Of a stretch of 64,000 bases of DNA, positions 14,186-54,757 are shown in pieces. Every line of letters starts with the position of its first letter. Positions within the stretch are counted from its first letter, which is position 1. Below the pieces are notes generated by a model, which saw only the letters and a list, made by a program, of their open reading frames with translations, was not told the origin of the DNA and made no database searches. Where the stretch lies: NCBI GenBank assembly GCA_900538765.1, contig UQAB01000001.1, positions 75,679-139,678 on the forward strand, in the 5' to 3' direction. The DNA comes from an uncultured Azospirillum sp. (GTDB lineage Bacteria; Pseudomonadota; Alphaproteobacteria; RF32; CAG-239). The translations under genes and the position numbers were made by a program.

Positions 14186-14460
14186 ATTTTGCTCGCAATT
14201 TCTGCACTGGTACCCCAAAATACACATTTCCAAGAAATGGTGAAGTTTGAGTCGAGTAGTAGGCGTCAAGGGCAGAAAAAGCGCAGTGTACAATGGCTAA
14301 GTAAAACTGTAACCAACGTTACAGTTTTATCTGTAACATCTCAGAAAATCTTAGTGAGTTAAGCTGTGACAACTGCTGCAACGAACTTAGATTCCTGAGC
14401 TAGTACATGAGCATTTTTCTGTCCCGCTGACAACGCACTAATCGACCATTACACCCCCTA
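14186..14460. repeat. degenerate family-A repeat copies: a 3' half-element, then a copy whose core is split by a ~108-bp insert
   Basis: ...TTTGCTCGCAATTTCTGCACTGGTACCCCAAAATACAC is the 3' half. Then AATGGTGAAGTTTGAG...GCGCAGTGTACA, the insert with hairpin AAACTGTAACcaacGTTACAGTTT, and ...GCTAGTACATGAGCATTTTTCTG. Confidence 0.6.
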
Positions 14461-14583
14461 AAAAATGGTGGAGTTTGAGGCTAATAGTAAGAAACAAGAG
14501 AAAATGCGAGGGAGTGTACATAGAAGTACATGACCGAACATTTTGCTCGCAGTTTCTGTACTAGTAGCCCAAAATACACCATT
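14461..14583. repeat. family-A structured repeat, intact copy
   Basis: AAAAATGGTGGAGTTTGAGGCTAATAGTAAGAAAC...GGGAGTGTACATAGAAGTACATGACCGAACATTTTGCTCGCAGTTTCTGTACTAGTAGCCCAAAATACACC. Termini are imperfectly complementary and inner stem AAAATG/CATTTT flanks the core. Confidence 0.7.
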
Positions 14584-14584
14584 T

Positions 14585-15583
14585 TTACGCTTGCAAACAA
14601 GTTATAGCAATAACCCCTACAATATCCTCAACCAAAGCCCCGCGGGACAAATCGTTGACCGGCGCATTCAATCCCTGCAATAAAGGACCATAGGCATCAC
14701 AACCGCCTAAACGCTGCAAGAGTTTATAACCAATGTTTCCAGCCTCAAGGCTTGGAAAAATCAAAACGTTAGCCTGTCCGGCAACATCGCTGCCCGGCGC
14801 TTTTTTCTTGGCGACAACACCATCCAATGCGGCATCGGCCTGCAACTCGCCGTCAAGCTTGATATTGAGTTTTTTATATTCTTCTGTCTGCAAATCTGCC
14901 TTGGCCATTTCTACGGCTCTCTTGACCTTGTCAACCCGCTCGCCCTTGCCAGAACCGTAAGTCGAATAAGAAAGCATAGCAACTTTCGGCTCAAAACCAA
15001 ACTTAAGAGCACTTTCGGCGGCATCCAGTGCAATATCGGCCATTTCCCTGTCCGTCGGATCAATAACAATACCGCAGTCAGAAAGCAAATATGGCTTATC
15101 CCCGAAAACCAGCAGGAAGAAAGAAGAAACCGCACGGCCTTTTTTAGCGGATTTAATAATCTGCAAAGCCGGACGCACCGTATCCGCCGTTGAATGATTG
15201 GCGCCGGAAACCATACCATCGGCATGACCGGATTTAATCATCAGCGTCCCGAAGTAATTATAGTTCAAAGCCAACTTTGCCGCATCTTCTTCCGTCAGAC
15301 CTTTGTCCTTGCGCAAGTCATACAAAAGTTTGGTATATTCGGCCAGCCGCGGAGAGTTTTCCGGCTTAACAATCTCGATTCCCTCCAGGCTCCATCCCTG
15401 CTTGGCAAAATGAGCCTTAATTTCGGCCTCATCTCCCAAAATAACCAGCTTGGCAACTTTTTCAGCGGCAATAAGATGTGCGGCTTCCAAAATCCGCATA
15501 TCTTCGCCTTCTGGCAAAACAATCGTTTTGTTCTTCAACTTGGCCTGTTCCATCAGGCTCTGCAAATATTTGTTATAAGACAT
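14585..15583 (-). CDS. pta: phosphate acetyltransferase (short Pta/Ptb family)
   Basis: MSYNKYLQSLMEQAKLKNKTIVLPEGEDMRILEAA... with a Pta C-terminal domain. Start at the internal ATG with SD AAGAAAAGG. Confidence 0.85.
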   Translation of the reverse strand: MSYNKYLQSLMEQAKLKNKTIVLPEGEDMRILEAAHLIAAEKVAKLVILGDEAEIKAHFAKQGWSLEGIEIVKPENSPRLAEYTKLLYDLRKDKGLTEEDAAKLALNYNYFGTLMIKSGHADGMVSGANHSTADTVRPALQIIKSAKKGRAVSSFFLLVFGDKPYLLSDCGIVIDPTDREMADIALDAAESALKFGFEPKVAMLSYSTYGSGKGERVDKVKRAVEMAKADLQTEEYKKLNIKLDGELQADAALDGVVAKKKAPGSDVAGQANVLIFPSLEAGNIGYKLLQRLGGCDAYGPLLQGLNAPVNDLSRGALVEDIVGVIAITCLQA

Positions 15584-18356: not shown

Positions 18357-18393
18357 CTTTGGCGAAACCGGCGAAGAAACGCCGGTTTCGCCC
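18357..18393 (+). terminator. strong hairpin after the AI-2E transporter gene
   Basis: GGCGAAACCGGCG-aagaaa-CGCCGGTTTCGCC is a perfect 13-bp stem. No clear U-run follows. Confidence 0.4.
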
Positions 18394-18410
18394 AAAACAA
18401 ATTCAAGAGC

Positions 18411-18580
18411 CTACATACAAACAATACACGAGCGAAAGAATTACAAGCATGACGCCAACATCAAAATAACCTTAGCTCCTAAAAAGGGTGTGCTGCGCCG
18501 TAATTCTTGAGCGACGTGTACACAAACAGTACACAAGCGAAAGAATTACAAGCATGACGCCTTTTTTTAGGAGCTAAGGG
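18411..18580. repeat. family-B long palindromic repeat (two GAAAGAATTACAAGCATGACGCC arms around core CGTGTACACAAACAGTACAC)
   Basis: Duplicated arm at ~18428-18457 and ~18531-18560. Outer inverted repeat CCTTAGCTCCTAAAAAGGG / CCTTTTTTTAGGAGCTAAGG. Middle stem GTAATTCTT/AAGAATTAC. Its 3' end overlaps the stop of the methyltransferase gene. Confidence 0.6.
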
Positions 18581-19266
18581 CGGAAGAGGGACTTACGCGC
18601 CAACCTATTCATACTCCACAAATTCCCCCACCCGTTAACCGGCTGCACCTCATAACGGGAAACAAAATCAAAATCTCGGGAAAAGAACAGAGATGTCGCT
18701 TTGGTATAACAGTTCATTGGGCAAAATCCGTAAAAATCCACCTGTAACAAACCGGCTTCCCGCAACGCGGCAACGGCATCTTTATACTCTTGGCTGGTAT
18801 TTATGCGGTCACTGTCATCAAGAATAATAAGGCCGCCCGGAGCCAAAGCTTTAACCGCGCAGCGGGAACAATCTGCCCGGCGTTTACCGTCAACAACAAT
18901 CACATCATATTGCTGCCCGTCTTCAAATATGGCGTTATAATAACCCTCGCCCTCATCCCGCCAGCGCACGTCAAGATTTTCCTCATGAAACGCCGCCTGC
19001 CACTTCTCAAACCATTGCAAATTATCCTCAATACTGACAACCCTTTCTGCCCGGCTGGCCCAAAACAGGGAAGAATTACCGCAACCAAATTCAAAAATCG
19101 TTTTCCGGCTGTAATCAAACTGTGACAAATACTCTATTGCCGGATAAGTATACCAGGGAATGGGATTGCCGTTACGATCAAGGCAGACTTTCTCGTCTAT
19201 AGTTCTTTCTATGGCAAAATCCTTCCGCCACATATCAATAAATTTCTGAAACTTTTCACTATACAT
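18574..19266 (-). CDS. class I SAM-dependent methyltransferase (O-methyltransferase-like)
   Basis: Motif I FEFGCGNSSLFW and motif IV-like GGLIILDD. Start at internal ATG MYSEKF with SD GAGGG. Confidence 0.6.
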   Translation of the reverse strand: MYSEKFQKFIDMWRKDFAIERTIDEKVCLDRNGNPIPWYTYPAIEYLSQFDYSRKTIFEFGCGNSSLFWASRAERVVSIEDNLQWFEKWQAAFHEENLDVRWRDEGEGYYNAIFEDGQQYDVIVVDGKRRADCSRCAVKALAPGGLIILDDSDRINTSQEYKDAVAALREAGLLQVDFYGFCPMNCYTKATSLFFSRDFDFVSRYEVQPVNGWGNLWSMNRLARKSLFRP

Positions 19267-19350
19267 TCGGTTATACCCTCGTTGAAAACACATTTATTCG
19301 TCATATATCATAATTGCATTCATAAGAAAACATTTTTTAGGAGATAAAAC

Positions 19351-29480: not shown

Positions 29481-29612
29481 TTAGCCGCTGTAAAAGTTTG
29501 GAGTTTGAGACTAGTAGTAAGAAACTAGAGAAACCGCGACAGGAGTGTACACAATAGTACATGACTTAGCGGTTTACTCGCTGTTTCTGTACTAATAGCC
29601 CAAAATACGAAC
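29481..29612. repeat. family-A structured repeat, single copy
   Basis: CTTAGCCGCTGTAAAAGTTTGGAGTTTGAGACTAGTAGTAAGAAAC...AAACCGCgacaGGAGTGTACACAATAGTACATGACttaGCGGTTT...GTTTCTGTACTAATAGCCCAAAATACGA. Inner stem AAACCGC/GCGGTTT. Confidence 0.65.
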
Positions 29613-29617
29613 TTTTA

Positions 29618-32443: not shown

Positions 32444-32516
32444 CTGTATTCTTTCAAAAAACGGGAGCCAAGCTCCCGAAATCTTTAGCAAAACTCATCA
32501 TAAAAAAAATAAGTTG

Positions 32517-32605
32517 ATAAAGAGGTGTGCTGCGCAGCATAAATTTGACGACGTGTACAACAAACAGTACACGAGGAGAATTTATGCAAGCATGACACCT
32601 CTTTT
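32517..32605. repeat. family-B long hairpin repeat
   Basis: AAGAGGTGTGCTGCGCAGCATAAATTTgacgaCGTGTACAacaaacAGTACACGaggagAATTTATGCAAGCATGACACCTCTT has nested stems and the same core as 18411..18580. Confidence 0.55.
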
Positions 32606-32610
32606 GCGAC

Positions 32611-32901
32611 TTATTTTCTGAGGAAGTCGACGTGCAAAGCCTTATCACTAACCGGATGGAACTGAACATCCTGGCATTTAACGGAATATTTGGTACCTTC
32701 AACGTCTACTTCAATGGCAAACTTGTACAGACCTGCCATATCCAGAGCTTTTTCAACCTGTACCGGGTCAAGACTAATCATAACCGGTTCTTGTTTTCCA
32801 CCATAGATGACAGCGGGAACGCGTCCTTCACGACGACATGCGCGAGCTGCCCCCTTACCTGCCAATTCACGCTTTTTAGCATTAAAAATTAAATCAGCCA
32901 T
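32611..32901 (-). CDS. rplY: 50S ribosomal protein L25 (short, Ctc N-domain only)
   Basis: RVPAVIYGGKQEPVMISLD...EVDVEG is the L25 fold. Adjacent to pth as is typical. Confidence 0.75.
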   Translation of the reverse strand: MADLIFNAKKRELAGKGAARACRREGRVPAVIYGGKQEPVMISLDPVQVEKALDMAGLYKFAIEVDVEGTKYSVKCQDVQFHPVSDKALHVDFLRK

Positions 32902-39480: not shown

Positions 39481-39649
39481 ATTTCTATACCTTTCATTTC
39501 ATCTTTTCAAACATCTTTATAAAACCTCACCCGAATTGGTCAAACCCGGGATTTTTAATATAAAGCACAATAATTACAATAATTGATATCGTGTAATAAA
39601 CTCCAAGTGCAAAAAAAACAGTATTCTCAAATTCTCCAGCACCTTCTTC

Positions 39650-40140
39650 AAAAAACTTGGAGTTTGAGGTCAATAGTAAGAAACTAGAGAAAATGTGAGG
39701 GAGTGTACATAGAAGTACATAACCGAACATTTTACTCGCAGTTTCTGTACTAGTGACCCAAAATACGAGTTTTTCAAAATTCACTTTTAGGAGAGCAGAT
39801 AGAGTAGTTTCCAGGTGCGAGAAAAATTCTAGTGTACAGAGAAGTACATGAATTTTTTGAGACACCCTCTCCTAAAAATGTTTTCAAAAAAACTTGGAGT
39901 TTGAGGTTAATAGTAAGAAAACAGAGAAAATGCGAGGGAGTGTACATAGAAGTACATGACCGAACATTTTACTCGCAGTTTCTGTACTAGTAACCCAAAA
40001 TACGAGTTTTTTAAAATTCACTTTTAGGAGAGCAGATAGAATAGTTTCCAGGTGCAAGAAAAATTCTAGTGTACAGAGAAGTACATGAATTTTTTGAGAC
40101 ACCGTAAAACTGCTCTAGATGCCTCATAAAAGTGAATTTT
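39650..40140. repeat. two tandem ~245-bp composite repeat units (family-A element plus a second hairpin element) filling the rpsO-pnp intergenic region
   Basis: Units at ~39652-39893 and ~39892-40140. Each has AAACTTGGAGTTTGAGGT(C/T)AATAGTAAGAAA...GGGAGTGTACATAGAAGTACAT(A/G)ACCGAA...CCCAAAATACGAGTTTTT. Then TTTTAGGAGAG...TAGTGTACAGAGAAGTACATGA...CTCTCCTAAAA. ORFs 39527..39865 and 39884..40102 are artefacts of the repeat. Confidence 0.7.
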
Positions 40141-44031: not shown

Positions 44032-44110
44032 AATTATATTTTTTTATTAAGTTAATAATATTTTTTCAACCCAAACCCTACCACAGGCTAGACAAAAGTC
44101 AACAAAAAAA
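44032..44110 (-). promoter_or_regulatory. family-type promoter plus AU-rich leader
   Basis: Conserved TTTTTTTGTTGACTTTTGTCTA. Confidence 0.45.
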
Positions 44111-44140: not shown

Positions 44141-44269
44141 TTAATCAGAAACTTCCGTCTTTTTCTTTTTTGCTTCTTCCTCAGCACAAAACTGCACCAA
44201 ATCATCAACTAAAAATCCAGCTGTTTCTAAACTGTCTTTAATACTTTGCAAAAATTCCTCTCTTTTCAT
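44141..44269 (-). pseudogene. 42-codon truncated paralog of the 51085..51696 gene (N-terminal domain only)
   Basis: Manual translation gives MKREEFLQSIKDSLETAGFLVDDLVQFCAEEEAKKKKTEVSD*. The paralog begins MEKEKFLQSIKETLEAAGFLVDDLVQYCAEKE... The upstream cassette is retained but the -35 reads TTGGCT instead of TTGACT. Too short for the ORF track. Confidence 0.5.
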
Positions 44270-44345
44270 AATTATATATTTTAAAAATTAATAATACTTT
44301 TTCTCTCTCATTACTGCAATCTAAACAAAAGCCAACAAGAAAGGT
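44270..44345 (-). promoter_or_regulatory. degenerate family-type promoter plus leader
   Basis: CTTGTTGGCTTTTGTTTAGA...AGTATTATTAATTTTTAAAATATATAATTATG. Confidence 0.4.
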
Positions 44346-44819: not shown

Positions 44820-44900
44820 AATAATTGTGTATTTAGTAGTTATAAAAATATTTTAACATCGCTACTATACTACATTTTAGACAAAAGTCAACAAAATATA
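44820..44900 (-). promoter_or_regulatory. family-type promoter plus AU-rich leader
   Basis: TTTGTTGACTTTTGTCTAAAATGTAGTATAGT...AAATACACAATTATTATG. Confidence 0.45.
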
Positions 44901-51084: not shown

Positions 51085-51696
51085 TTAAGATAATTCAGAC
51101 AAATCCAGCACCGGATGAACAACGTAGTTGCCGTACTTATTGCGGTAGTCCACGCCGCCCCAATCAGCGCCAATAAGCGTACAGAAGACCCACGCGTGGT
51201 AGCCGTCATACTCGGACGACGACCAATACCATTTCCCCTGCACCACTATTGTATCACCGCCAAGGCTAATCAACAAATTATCAAGCGCTTTTTTCTGTTC
51301 CTCACAGCTACTCATCACTTTTTTCCAGAATCCAATTTTTCCGGCGCTGCAAGCATGACCTTCTATTTTAATTTCACGACAATACTTCACAACTTCTCTC
51401 CACGGCACCGTCCTTGAAGAATCATGTAAGGTGATAAGATGATTCTCAAAAATAACGCCCAATGGCTTTTTGCCTTCAAGCGGAACCCATGACCGAACCA
51501 TACCCTCATACATAACTTCAAAAGGAAATCTTTCCTCGTTCTCTTTTGAAGAAACACCAACGACAGAAACGTCACTTGCTACAGCATTAATAGCCGGTAC
51601 CTCCTTTTCAGCACAATATTGCACCAAATCGTCAACTAAAAACCCTGCCGCCTCCAATGTCTCTTTAATACTTTGTAAAAATTTTTCTTTTTCCAT
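51085..51696 (-). CDS. family protein: N-terminal domain plus DUF1566/Lcl-C-terminal-like domain
   Basis: ...GKWYWSSSEYDGYHAWVFCTLIGADWGGVDYRNKYGNYVVHPV matches the hallmark YWSST...AW.v.f..G......yvRcV ending of DUF1566/FISUMP-type domains. No signal peptide. Confidence 0.5.
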   Translation of the reverse strand: MEKEKFLQSIKETLEAAGFLVDDLVQYCAEKEVPAINAVASDVSVVGVSSKENEERFPFEVMYEGMVRSWVPLEGKKPLGVIFENHLITLHDSSRTVPWREVVKYCREIKIEGHACSAGKIGFWKKVMSSCEEQKKALDNLLISLGGDTIVVQGKWYWSSSEYDGYHAWVFCTLIGADWGGVDYRNKYGNYVVHPVLDLSELS

Positions 51697-51775
51697 AATT
51701 ATATATTTTAATTAATAATAAATTTCATATTCCTACTCTATCACGCATTAGACAAAAGTCAACAAAAAAACATCT
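51697..51775 (-). promoter_or_regulatory. family-type promoter plus AU-rich leader (reference copy)
   Basis: Reverse complement reads TTTTTTTGTTGACTTTTGTCTAATGCGTGATAGAGTAGGAATATGAAATTTATTATTAATTAAAATATATAATTATG. Confidence 0.5.
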
Positions 51776-51819: not shown

Positions 51820-52255
51820 AGCCGTAGTAAAAAGTTCAGAGTTTGCGGCAGATAATAAGAATCTCGGAAAAAGACGAAGGGAGTGTACATAGAAGTACAT
51901 GACCGAGTATTTTTTCAATGTTCTGTATTAGATGCCCAAAATACGCAGCAACAAACCCAAACCCCGACCTTAGCCGCTGTAAAAAGGTCGGAGTTTGCGG
52001 CAGATAATAAGAATCTCGGAAAAAGACGAAGGAAGTGTACACAGAAGTACATGACCGAGTATTTTTCCGAGATTCTGTATTAGGTACCCAAAATACGCAG
52101 CAACAAACCCAAGCCCCGACCTTAGCCGCTGTAAAAAGGTCGGAGTTTGCGGCAGATAATAAGAATCTCGGAAAAAGACGAAGGGAGTGTACACAGAAGT
52201 ACATGACCGAGTATTTTTCCGAGATTCTGTATTAGGTGCCCAAAATACGAGCTTT
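51820..52255. repeat. three tandem ~152-bp family-A-variant repeat units between infB stop and the 51085 gene promoter
   Basis: Each unit is ...CCGACCTTAGCCGCTGTAAAAAGGTCGGAGTTTGCGGCAGATAATAAGAATCTCGGAAAAAgacgaaGGGAGTGTACACAGAAGTACATGACCGAGTATTTTTCCGAGATTCTGTATTAGGT(A/G)CCCAAAATACG... ORFs 51836..52204, 51883..52083, 51970..52287, 52035..52235 and 52187..52393 are repeat artefacts. Confidence 0.7.
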
Positions 52256-54757
52256 TTACAATGTTGCGGCGATTTCCTCCACCTCATAACACTCTATAAA
52301 GTCACCGACTTGAATATCGTTATAGTTTTCAAAACTCATACCGCATTCATAGCCGGATTTGACCTCTTTAACATCTTCCTTAAAGCGTTTTAGCTGAGCC
52401 AAAGCGCCATCATGAATAACAACATTGTCACGCAGCAGACGAACCTTGGCACCACGCTTGACAAAGCCTTCCGTCACCATGCAGCCGCCGACTTTACCGA
52501 CACCGGTAATATTGAAGACATTGCGGATTTCGGCATAACCGATAATCTTTTCTCTCAATTCAGGCGACAACATACCTTCCAAAGCCTTCTTAATGTCATC
52601 GGCCACATCATAAATAATCGAGTAATAACGAATATCCACGCCGTCCTGACGCGCCATGTCACGGGCATGCGGAATAGCACGGACGTTAAAGCCGATGATA
52701 AAGGCATTGGAAGCCTTAGCCAGAGTAACATCGGAATCCGAAATAGGACCAACGGCAGAATGCAAAATCTGAACGCTGACTTCCTCGTTGGACAACTTCT
52801 TAATTGTACCTTCAATAGCCTCAATAGAACCTTGAACATCAGCCTTGATAATAACCGGCAAATGCTTAACTTCGCCTGACTTAATCTTATCAAGCATCTG
52901 TTCCATTGCAGACTTGGCACTCTTAACCAGTTTAGCGTCACGTTCTTTGCGAATACGATAACCGGTAACTTCCTTAGCCTGGTTTTCGTCCTTAACAATG
53001 ACAAAATCGTCACCGGCTGCCGGCGTTCCTTGCAAACCGAGAATTTCAACTGGGGTCGCCGGACCGGCTTCCGTCATCTTCTTGCCATGTTCGTTAAACA
53101 TAGCGCGGACATGTCCCCACTCCTTACCGGCAATACAAATATCACCAACGCGCAGCGTACCGTTCTGAACCAGAACCGTTGCAACAGAACCGCGGCCTTT
53201 TTCCATCTTGGCTTCAACAACCGTACCCGAAGCCATGCGATTCGGGTTGGCTTTCAAATCCAGAATTTCCGCCTGCAACAGAATAGCTTCAACCAGCTTA
53301 TCAATGTTAATACGCTTCTTAGCCGAAACTTCTGCGCTCAAATATTCACCGCCCATATCTTCAACGGCAATGCCATGTTGCAATAAAGCGGTCTTCACCT
53401 TCATCGGATCAGCGCCCGGAAGGTCAATCTTGTTAATCGCAACCACAATCGGCACTTCTGCAGCCTGAGCATGGCGGATTGCCTCAACCGTCTGCGGCAT
53501 AATGCCGTCATTGGCAGCAACCACCAGAACCACAATATCGGTAACCTTTGCACCGCGAGCACGCATTTCTGAAAAGGCCTCGTGTCCCGGCGTATCAATA
53601 AAGGCAATCTTTTTGCCTCCGGCAACTTCAATCTGATAAGCACCGATATGTTGCGTAATACCACCAGCCTCGCGAGAAGCAACGTTTGTTTCGCGCAAAG
53701 CATCCAATAACGAAGTCTTACCATGGTCAACGTGTCCCATAACCGTAACCACCGGCGCTCTCGGCAGCAAATCGGCGTCCGTATCTTCCGGACCGGTCAA
53801 CCCCTGCTCAACATCGCTGTCGGCAACTCGTTTAAACTTATGTCCGAATTCCTCAACCACAATCTGCGCCGTATCGGCATCAATCGGTTGGTTAATCGTA
53901 GCCATAACCCCTAAAGCCATCAGCTTTTTAATAACTTCGGCACCTTTTTCTGCCATACGGTTAGCCAATTCCTGAACCGTAATAATTTCAGGAATAACGA
54001 CCTCTTTAACAATTTTTTCTGTCGGCTGCTGAAAAGCCTGCTGCTTCGGCTGTTTTTTCTTAAACCGACGCCGGCCGCCGCCAAAACCATAATCATCGTC
54101 ATCTTCATCAACACTGCTCAATGTATGCAGGTTGACTTTTCCGCCGCGCCGCGGTGTTTCAAAACTGCGCTTCATAACTTTTTTGCGCTCTTGTTCAAAA
54201 ACATCATCTTTGCTCAAAGATCTTTCGGCAACTTTTTTAAACTTATGATTATGGGAATCTTCTTCCTCGTCTTCGTCCTCTTCATCGAAATCGCGGGACT
54301 TCTTTTCCTTAATCTTCTGAATACGATCATCCTCAGCCGGTGAAACCGCTGCCGTTACCACAGGACGAACAGCTGCTTTTTTCTCCTCCGCCGCCTTTTT
54401 AGCTTCTTCGGCTTCCCGTTGAGCCTTTTCCTGCTCTTCCTGTTCACGTCTCAGCTGGCGCTGGCGTTCCTTCTCTTCTTCCTCCTGCCGGCGTTTGGCA
54501 TCATGCTCTTTAGCCTCGGCAATAAGCCGCAGCTTTGCAGCTGTCGCTTCGTCAATTTTAACTTTAGGCTCTTCCGTTTCGCTGCGATTGGCGATAACCC
54601 TCTTCTTTCGCACTTCAACCTGAACAATCTTCTTGCCGTCATTATTGTGCGCCCGGGAACCGTCGCTTACATTTTTGAGTGTAAGGGTAGATTTACCTGA
54701 TAATGTTAATTTGCTTTTTGCATTATCTTCTGTCATTAATTTTTTTCTCCGTATCAT
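52256..54757 (-). CDS. infB: translation initiation factor IF-2
   Basis: GTPase domain [19 protein letters not shown]...DTPGHEAF...NKID and the IF-2 C-terminal domains. An alternative start is the ATG at 54736. Confidence 0.95.

Follow-up and report, generated by a model that had tools for sequence, protein, structure and literature searches.

Stop-codon-abutting palindromic repeats in a gut alphaproteobacterium and their probable relationship to ERIC

A 64,000-nt stretch of the genome of an uncultured Azospirillum sp. (GTDB lineage Bacteria; Pseudomonadota; Alphaproteobacteria; RF32; CAG-239; assembly GCA_900538765.1, contig UQAB01000001.1, positions 75,679 to 139,678 of the forward strand), hereafter called the window, carries a small, non-coding and dispersed repeat that is present in at least 13 copies or fragments, distributed over four subfamilies (T1 to T4) and six loci, all on the + strand (Table 1). 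Every copy forms a single long hairpin whose stems covary between loci, and, at all six loci, the element closest to a minus-strand gene abuts or overlaps the stop codon of that gene. On balance, we favor the view that these repeats are non-coding palindromic elements of the ERIC/IRU type, located at gene 3' ends, co-transcribed with the gene and acting as hairpins in its 3' untranslated region (3' UTR), with a copy number that expands and contracts locally.

The core AGTGTACA-N4-AGTACATRA was found nine times in the window, always on the + strand (starts at 14513, 29544, 39702, 39831, 39939, 40068, 51882, 52034 and 52186), when 0 matches were expected from 100 dinucleotide-preserving shuffles; in the window copies it takes the form GGAGTGTACA-N4-AGTACATGAC. 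The arm motifs GGAGTTTGAGG..AGTAAGAAAC and GTTTCTGTACTAGT..CCCAAAATAC, which an initial annotation made from the letters of the window had described as shared between copies, are present as well and are not random, since their expectation is also 0, and the detection of direct repeats clustered the very loci that were found by core matching. The T1 subfamily has the arms GGAGTTTGMGG..ATAGTAAGAA and TTCTGTAYTAG..CCCAAAATAC, T2 has the arms CAGATAGAG and CTCTAGATG, and T3, which was revealed solely by covariance-model search, has the variant core GACGTGTACA(A)CAAACAGTACACRAG. In the T4 element, a structured insert of 109 nt that folds by itself (14293-14401) takes the place of the 4-nt apical loop, and the arms pair around this branched insert (-78 kcal/mol, z -5.7); no second copy of the insert was found among the sequences compared, except for a weak match in L010 (E 0.09).

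All copy coordinates quoted in the initial annotation were borne out and all copies are indeed intergenic, but its inventory was incomplete. It had listed two copies in the interval 39650-40140, which are both real, and had missed two more elements that belong to the second subfamily, one of them truncated. The copies that it had called degenerate at 14186-14460 turned out to be an orphan 3' half followed by a complete T4 element, and the T3 subfamily (two elements and one partial copy) had escaped it altogether.

Table 1. Repeat elements of the window, with their support and the gene ends that they reach (R1, covariance model described in the text)
Element	Position	Strand	Core or repeat support	R1 match	Fold	Gene end
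Orphan T1 3' half	14186..14225	+	repeat family D6; 3'-arm pattern with 3 mismatches			
T4, resembling L034	14239..14455	+	split core AGTGTACA...AGTACATGA; both halves found by nhmmer			
T1	14461..14585	+		45.3 bits, E 2.8e-10	-52.8 kcal/mol, z -10.4	3' end meets pta stop codon 14585-14587, minus strand
Truncated T3 (inner 5' arm, apex and 3' arm)	18400..18456	+	repeat family D8			
T3	18472..18578	+	core GACGTGTACACAAACAGTACACAAG	20.3 bits, E 0.008	-60 kcal/mol, z -11	overlaps stop end of minus-strand ORF 18574-19293
T1, between convergent genes	29488..29616	+		40.3 bits, E 8.5e-9	-48 kcal/mol, z -7.1	3' end 2 nt from trmL stop codon 29618-29620, minus strand
T3	32507..32616	+	core GACGTGTACAACAAACAGTACACGAG	31.4 bits, E 3.8e-6	-55.9 kcal/mol, z -11.5	overlaps stop end of minus-strand ORF 32611-32901
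T1, first of four rpsO-pnp spacer elements	39650..39774	+	core match	47.9 bits	+ strand -54.1, - strand -44.4 kcal/mol	
T2 with shortened 3' arm, at junction of 237-bp tandem duplication	39775..39886	+	core at 39831; repeat family D1	partial match		
T1, duplicate copy	39887..40011	+	core match	50.7 bits, E 6.7e-12		
Full T2	40012..40140	+	core at 40068	44.7 bits	-52.7 kcal/mol, z -9.6	3' end 1 nt from rpsO stop codon 40142-40144, minus strand
Three T1 units in tandem, 152 bp each (51830-51954, 51982-52106, 52134-52258)	51830..52258	+	repeat family D2	41.7-47.2 bits		last unit overlaps infB stop codon 52256-52258, minus strand

Folding, which had been proposed as a check, gave one hairpin of about 105-130 nt for each copy (-48 to -60 kcal/mol, z about -7 to -11), and the + strand of the window copies is 6-12 kcal/mol stabler than its complement. 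These hairpins share an architecture in which a 6-bp apical stem, closed by a G.U pair, is flanked on both sides by GA/GA purine loops, below which come a "variable" helix of free sequence, a conserved AAGR...RAC layer and an outer A-run/T-run stem. A common pattern of loops and bulges is also seen in the folds of foreign copies: going outward from the apex, the apical stem gives way to a loop (5' NNA and 3' GA; GA/GA in T1) and then to 2 bp, an A bulge, a short helical segment and another GA/GA loop, after which come a helix of about 10 bp with free sequence, an AAGG...CAACG layer and the outer stems. These outer stems are locus-specific A-run/stem/T-run units; in T3, GGCGUC is followed by U7. 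In copies from gammaproteobacterial metagenome-assembled genomes (MAGs; L025, L030, L082, L023 and L028), the palindrome exceeds the 121-nt model and reaches about 160-170 nt, with outer layers that these copies have in common, such as CACCTCTAAAAAT...ATTTTTAGAGGTG.

The segments that bracket the core differ between loci and are nevertheless self-complementary: AAAATG/CATTTT, AAACCGC/GCGGTTT and ATCTCGGAAAAA/TTTTTCCGAGAT, which had been pointed out as signs of compensatory change, are all there. An alignment of seven main-subfamily copies of the window with six close relatives, taken from MAGs of gut alphaproteobacteria, showed that, in a structure of 45 pairs, 91.3% of the cells are paired, when only 36-49% are if the partners are slid by 1-3 columns; 30 of the 45 pairs are altered on both sides, and none of 500 shuffles attained the observed values, showing that the stems do covary. 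Such covariation demands selection for the hairpin, or a mechanism that preserves the hairpin. Since the changes run almost purely from one Watson-Crick pair to another, with one-sided changes in only seven cells, they do not indicate which strand is selected, nor whether as RNA or as DNA, so that the selection on structure proposed in the initial annotation holds as a constraint on the hairpin, but not as a choice of strand or molecule. When RNAalifold was applied to a MAFFT alignment of 103 foreign copies, it recovered the core alone because the variable helices misalign, and we turned to a curated subset for which the structure was supplied.

The family extends far beyond this genome. A scan for the 17-base core in one genome per species listed at least 120 loci; about 140 matches are expected by chance across the whole 596-Gb collection. 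Nearly all of the listed matches lie between self-complementary arms whose sequence differs by taxon, indicating that they are real elements. Their hosts are gut, rumen and environmental Alphaproteobacteria, including Rickettsiales and Holosporales; many Gammaproteobacteria, among which are five Legionella species, Berkiella, Rhodanobacteraceae, Woeseiaceae and Thiotrichales; the betaproteobacterium Gallionella, Bdellovibrionales, two Chlorobium MAGs and one Vampirovibrio; and, with a few probable cases of misbinning, Saccharibacteria and some Clostridia MAGs. The nearest relatives of the window copies are found in gut alphaproteobacterial MAGs. A covariance model (R1) built from 38 foreign copies, none of which came from gut alphaproteobacteria or E. 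coli, recovered all the window copies (E 7e-12 to 9e-9; T3 more weakly, E 3.8e-6 and 0.008). At gathering thresholds, Rfam gave no match over the elements of the window or of 18 foreign loci, and relaxing the search (E<=10) gave nothing relevant over the window elements; a literature search on the core sequence returned irrelevant matches only. The kind of element, a palindromic intergenic repeat, is already known; novelty, as judged from the searchable literature, lies in the subfamilies themselves, in how widely the family is spread, in the common apical module and in a stop-codon bias quantified across phyla.

The core is less fixed than it seemed. It appears invariant in the scan because the scan demanded it, and the extra copies that R1 found without this requirement carry compensatory changes in the apical stem (GCGUAC/GUACGU, GCAUAC/GUAUGU and GUGUAU/AUACAU), which disposes of the idea of an invariant core. 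What persists is a 6-bp stem, mostly G.U-closed, with G/A residues alongside. Of the 109 copies aligned to the model, mostly ascertained through the exact core, 105 have G.U as the closing pair. Several variants with a covaried stem keep this G.U pair, which ERIC has too, and the pair of T3 and of two foreign T3-like copies is G-C.

The genes reached by the window elements are pta, trmL, rpsO, infB and two open reading frames (ORFs). Since the copies lie on the + strand and the abutted genes on the minus strand, the mRNA of each gene would carry the reverse complement of the + strand. A census of model matches in 100 foreign loci, using ORFs of at least 100 codons, showed that this arrangement recurs: in 34 of 101 cases, at most 12 nt separate the 3' end of the element from an antisense gene's stop codon, whereas the mirror arrangement, with the 5' end beside the stop codon of a sense gene, was found in two of 101, a 17-fold bias; a cruder count gave 63 versus 18. 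An element placed at an antisense stop codon means that the hairpin starts where the terminating ribosome still covers the mRNA. The same orientation bias is said to have been described by De Gregorio in 2005 for Yersinia ERICs located beside stop codons.

ERIC has long been used in strain typing (ERIC-PCR), and to our knowledge its origin, its mobilising enzyme and its function are unsettled in the field; Wilson and Sharp reportedly described, in 2006, larger ERIC variants with internal insertions. According to reviews, it is a 127-bp element of the MITE class (miniature inverted-repeat transposable elements) with 7-bp terminal inverted repeats (TIRs) and a TA duplication, it is co-transcribed with flanking genes and it has an orientation-dependent effect on the upstream mRNA through an RNase E site (PMC2229807, PMC10969869, PMC3184786); its host range is limited to Enterobacteriaceae and Vibrionaceae (PMC10969869). 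The window elements are likewise single imperfect-palindrome hairpins of about 125 nt, intergenic and multicopy, which abut stop codons with their forward strand antisense to the gene. The E. coli ERIC that we used as a reference (L121 559-684, between ybhI and ybhJ) is separated by 1 nt from the stop codon of ybhI, and its forward strand is antisense to this gene. Its apex, CCCCAG-GA-GCUUAC-AUAA-GUAAGU-GA-CUGGGG, is the same module as GG-GA-GUGUAC-N6-GUACAU-GA-CC in T1, and the asymmetry between strands is similar (-56.2 forward and -40.0 kcal/mol reverse in ERIC; -54 and -44 in T1).

Cross-matches agree with this shared architecture. R1 matched the whole of the E. coli ERIC, on the same strand, with 20.9 bits and E 0.005. 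In Smith-Waterman comparisons of ERIC with 125 elements, z rose up to 11.7 and exceeded 3 for 13 elements in forward and none in reverse orientation, the window copies reaching 4.0, 3.2, 2.3 and 1.9, and the top three matches of an ERIC nhmmer search over 0.9 Mb were elements aligned in register (E 0.019-0.063). The Rfam family RF02818, V_AS5 ("Vibrio RNA AS5", antisense type), which derives from a 133-nt RNA antisense to VC1225 of V. cholerae seen by sequencing of small RNAs (sRNA-seq) and on Northern blots (PMC2665243), also matched the E. coli ERIC from end to end on the same strand (46 bits and E 1e-8, under the gathering score of 96), which suggests that what this entry models is the ERIC repeat and not an antisense RNA present in one copy. 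Sensu stricto, the window elements fall outside ERIC: ERIC has a CUUAC/GUAAG stem with a 4-nt loop where they have GUGUAC/GUACAU and a 6-nt loop, the termini differ, the ERIC central consensus GTGAATCCCCAGGAGCTTACATAAGTAAGTGACTGGGGTGAGCG is lacking in the window copies and the hosts of the window family are far outside Enterobacteriaceae and Vibrionaceae. The cross-matches by model and alignment, the shared architecture and strand asymmetry and the position at stop codons make it probable that they belong with ERIC in a wider family, so that the initial annotation, which had matched them to no described element, is to be revised on this point. Most window copies end in TA-AAAA...TTTT-TA, which is weak as evidence for a TA duplication because the genome is AT-rich.

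Among strains, unequal recombination alters the number of elements locally. The host bacterium is very common in the human gut (576 blocks of the assembly collection contain its exact S15 protein). Between strains, the rpsO-pnp spacer measures 661, 652, 533 or 424 nt, corresponding to 4, 4, 3 and 2 elements, and the 237-bp duplication is absent from it in strain L124. Similarly, the infB spacer measures 255, 407, 560, 712 or 863 nt (L134-L143), in steps of 152 nt that amount to one to five units, so that, after infB, T1 has the behavior of a variable-number tandem repeat. The T3 array (18400-18578; L144-L153), with a unit of 106 bp, holds from 0.5 to at least 4.5 units, and the lone T3 piece of strain L144 is the truncated copy 18400..18456; three public assemblies have N-gaps inside this array, where assemblies break. 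In the pta-ackA spacer, T4 and T1 have recombined through their homologous 3' ends in strains L236 and L237, which thereby lack T1, and strains L235 and L238 have a T4 with no 109-nt insert and an intact loop (CACC or CACT). Variation is also seen between species: the trmL site is occupied by the element in this species and by a different short subfamily in a relative with 77% protein identity, and it is empty in most other related species.

Two observations made along these arrays concern other features. ORFs of 105-179 codons traverse the repeat arrays, in the window (39527-39865, 51836-52204 and 51970-52287) and elsewhere (L124 2813-3151; L134 409-879; L143 340-879); they are annotated as genes in public assemblies, have no Pfam match and are almost certainly repeat artefacts. 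Beside the T3 array, a small terminator hairpin at 18362-18393, after a gene of the AI-2E transporter family, reads GGCGAAACCGGCG-AAGAAA-CGCCGGTTTCGCC, and its loop is inverted to TTTCTT in strains L151 and L153, a loop-inversion polymorphism.

If these repeats act as ERIC/IRU-type elements of gene 3' ends, they would be transcribed together with the upstream gene, and a hairpin starting 0-12 nt past the stop codon would provide a structure at the 3' end of its mRNA. This hairpin may act as a terminator-like barrier to 3'-to-5' exonucleases or, alternatively, as a substrate for RNase III or RNase E, while terminating ribosomes would open its base, as was proposed for ERIC in Yersinia. Spreading to new gene ends would require a mobilising activity acting in trans, and the hairpin may be kept intact because this activity, or a function of the RNA, needs it.

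Several results weigh against this interpretation. Statistically, the evidence that ties the family to ERIC is modest (E 0.005 to 0.06): the ERIC nhmmer search matched no window copy, a family profile using sequence only (nhmmer) misses ERIC, and the V_AS5 model gave no score on the window copies or on seven foreign loci, including the most ERIC-like copies. The terminator scan, which models hairpins with 3-8-nt loops only, found none in the rpsO-pnp and infB spacers. The termini of the elements are their least conserved part and the apex the best conserved, unlike the TIRs bound by a transposase, in line with the contrast to transposase-recognised MITE ends that the initial annotation drew; ERIC itself is usually classed as a MITE. 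Concerning mobility, a hunt for empty sites based on six protein look-ups and a metagenome scan found no clean pair of filled and empty sites and delimited no target duplication, yielding only copy-number variants, recombinational deletions and sites in diverged species, and the empty trmL sites are confined to species too diverged for alignment; the sole exact case of presence and absence is strain L123, which lacks the T2 element 40012..40140, with junctions inside T-runs. Last, the stabler strand, the conserved G.U pair and the purine loops are all on the strand antisense to the abutting gene, so that these strand-specific signatures fit poorly with a function in the mRNA of that gene.

These same signatures are a reason to consider that the functional molecule could instead be a structured RNA of about 120 nt, transcribed from the + strand and, as with AS5 of V. 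cholerae, antisense to the neighbouring genes at their 3' ends, with the apical module as a protein-binding or processing site. The + strand has the stabler fold in 92 of 121 elements (mean -65.3 versus -59.6 kcal/mol), as in ERIC; its unpaired bases are purines in 74% of cases, the conserved unpaired positions being G or A; and the G.U closing pair recurs on it, with the ascertainment by exact core and the G-C exception of T3 given above. Outside the core, the model alignment has 225 G.U and 156 A.C pairs, a 1.4-fold excess, although G.U counts on minimum-free-energy folds are equal between strands (263 versus 299) and the compensation is nearly all Watson-Crick to Watson-Crick. A promoter consensus scan of the rpsO-pnp and infB spacers found no promoter-like site within or before the elements, which, together with the + strand being antisense to the abutting gene, argues against discrete small RNA genes, for which the initial annotation had proposed a test; an RNA gene would also be hard to reconcile with tandem arrays whose number of units varies freely between strains. 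The AS5 RNA, whose model matches ERIC on the same strand, is the sole experimental datum on the family and has + polarity, so that an RNA of the + strand stays a serious rival; however, the Northern signal of a multicopy repeat may reflect read-through from convergent genes, and we judge this explanation unlikely.

The hairpin could also matter as DNA, either because a single-stranded or cruciform form is moved or recognised by a structure-specific enzyme, for which REP/RAYT, the ends of IS200/IS605 and integron attC sites would be models, or because the elements insert into the loops of pre-existing terminator hairpins, with any effect on RNA being incidental. Symmetric Watson-Crick covariation is expected if either strand must fold, the conservation of the apex and variability of the termini is the reverse of what TIR-type MITEs show, the 109-nt insertion of T4 lies exactly in the apical loop and is polymorphic between strains, and G.T and tandem G.A pairs are stable in DNA too. 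In more distant species (L180 and L183), a plain bidirectional terminator (AAAAACCTCGGAAAATCCGAGGTTTTT; AAAAAAGCTCCGATTTCGGAGCTTTTTT) directly follows the trmL stop codon, and its stem resembles the locus-specific outer A-run/stem/T-run unit of T1 (AAAAAGCTCG...CGAGCTTTTT), which hints that the elements may sit inside former terminator hairpins. However, no empty terminator allele of a filled site was found, the GTAG/CGTC tag is absent and the elements are far longer than REPs. An all-versus-all blastp of 821 ORFs from the 120 loci listed by the scan, among which the foreign sequences measured 1-8 kb, also found no family in more than seven loci and no recurrent transposase or RAYT. The strand with the purine loops would moreover lie on the leading-strand template for co-oriented genes, unlike a site of the IS200/REP type. 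We thus regard a DNA-level explanation as quite unlikely.

That the repeats are neutral debris, palindromes made and homogenised by recombination that have neither function nor current mobility, would suit the fact that all strain-level changes are unequal crossovers or deletions between neighbours and that no clean new insertion was seen, but we find it highly improbable given an architecture kept across classes and phyla through many independent compensatory changes, the 17-fold bias in orientation and position in unrelated genomes and an occupancy of the trmL site that varies among related species.

Other known repeats resemble the window elements in habit. Correia/NEMIS, RUP, RPE, YPAL and SPRITE are also small, non-coding, multicopy hairpins located near gene 3' ends and often co-transcribed, and they have been proposed to influence the processing of mRNA or its termination; SPRITE is terminator-like, and the targets of YPAL are regions of dyad symmetry. 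None of them shares sequence similarity with the window elements, and those families are defined by conserved termini and, where known, a matching insertion sequence, whereas the part conserved in the window elements is the apex; RPEs insert in frame within genes, which the window elements do not. REP/BIME/REPIN elements are intergenic hairpins after stop codons too, with compensatory stem evolution and a structure-dependent mechanism, but REPs measure 20-40 nt and have a GTAG/CGTC tag and a RAYT gene, when the window elements measure about 120 nt, with no tag in the alignments and no RAYT nearby. QMITE2 of Coxiella, which also occurs in 3' UTRs, is based on REP/GTAG and is unrelated. The CIR repeats of Caulobacter and Brucella are intergenic, about 110 nt long and conserved between alphaproteobacteria; the CIR of Caulobacter was rejected as a candidate since it consists of two arms and a linker, with a GANTC methylation site in the loop, whereas the window elements are single hairpins with no conserved GANTC.

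The window contains a further, unrelated AT-rich repeat (D5, D7), ending in TAGACAAAAGTCAACAAAAAAA, at 44038-44110, 44271-44343, 44827-44899 and 51698-51770 and also at 44181-44294 / 51608-51721. Its copies are found a short way upstream of where several minus-strand ORFs start and may serve these as a common promoter, operator or leader.

For this common gut bacterium, the repeats create variable-number tandem arrays after essential genes (infB, rpsO-pnp), break assemblies, as the N-gaps in arrays illustrate, and spawn spurious "hypothetical protein" calls. For the family, we tentatively put forward a broader idea, which may be true but which we would not call likely: ERIC would be the enterobacterial tip of a large superfamily of stop-codon-abutting hairpins, spread over most Pseudomonadota and other phyla, whose apical module (tandem G.A loops on either side of a 6-bp stem closed by G.U) would be recognised by one conserved factor acting in trans. 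If so, this single factor would be a nuclease, an RNA-binding protein or the ERIC mobilising enzyme, and one mechanism would account for the orientation-specific placement at gene ends. Should the relationship to ERIC hold, hundreds of diverged relatives across classes would be open to comparative analysis: the G.U-closed apical stem, the GA loops and the stop-codon orientation would be the conserved features and the termini and the middle helix the variable ones, which would narrow the range of mechanisms by which such repeats may act.

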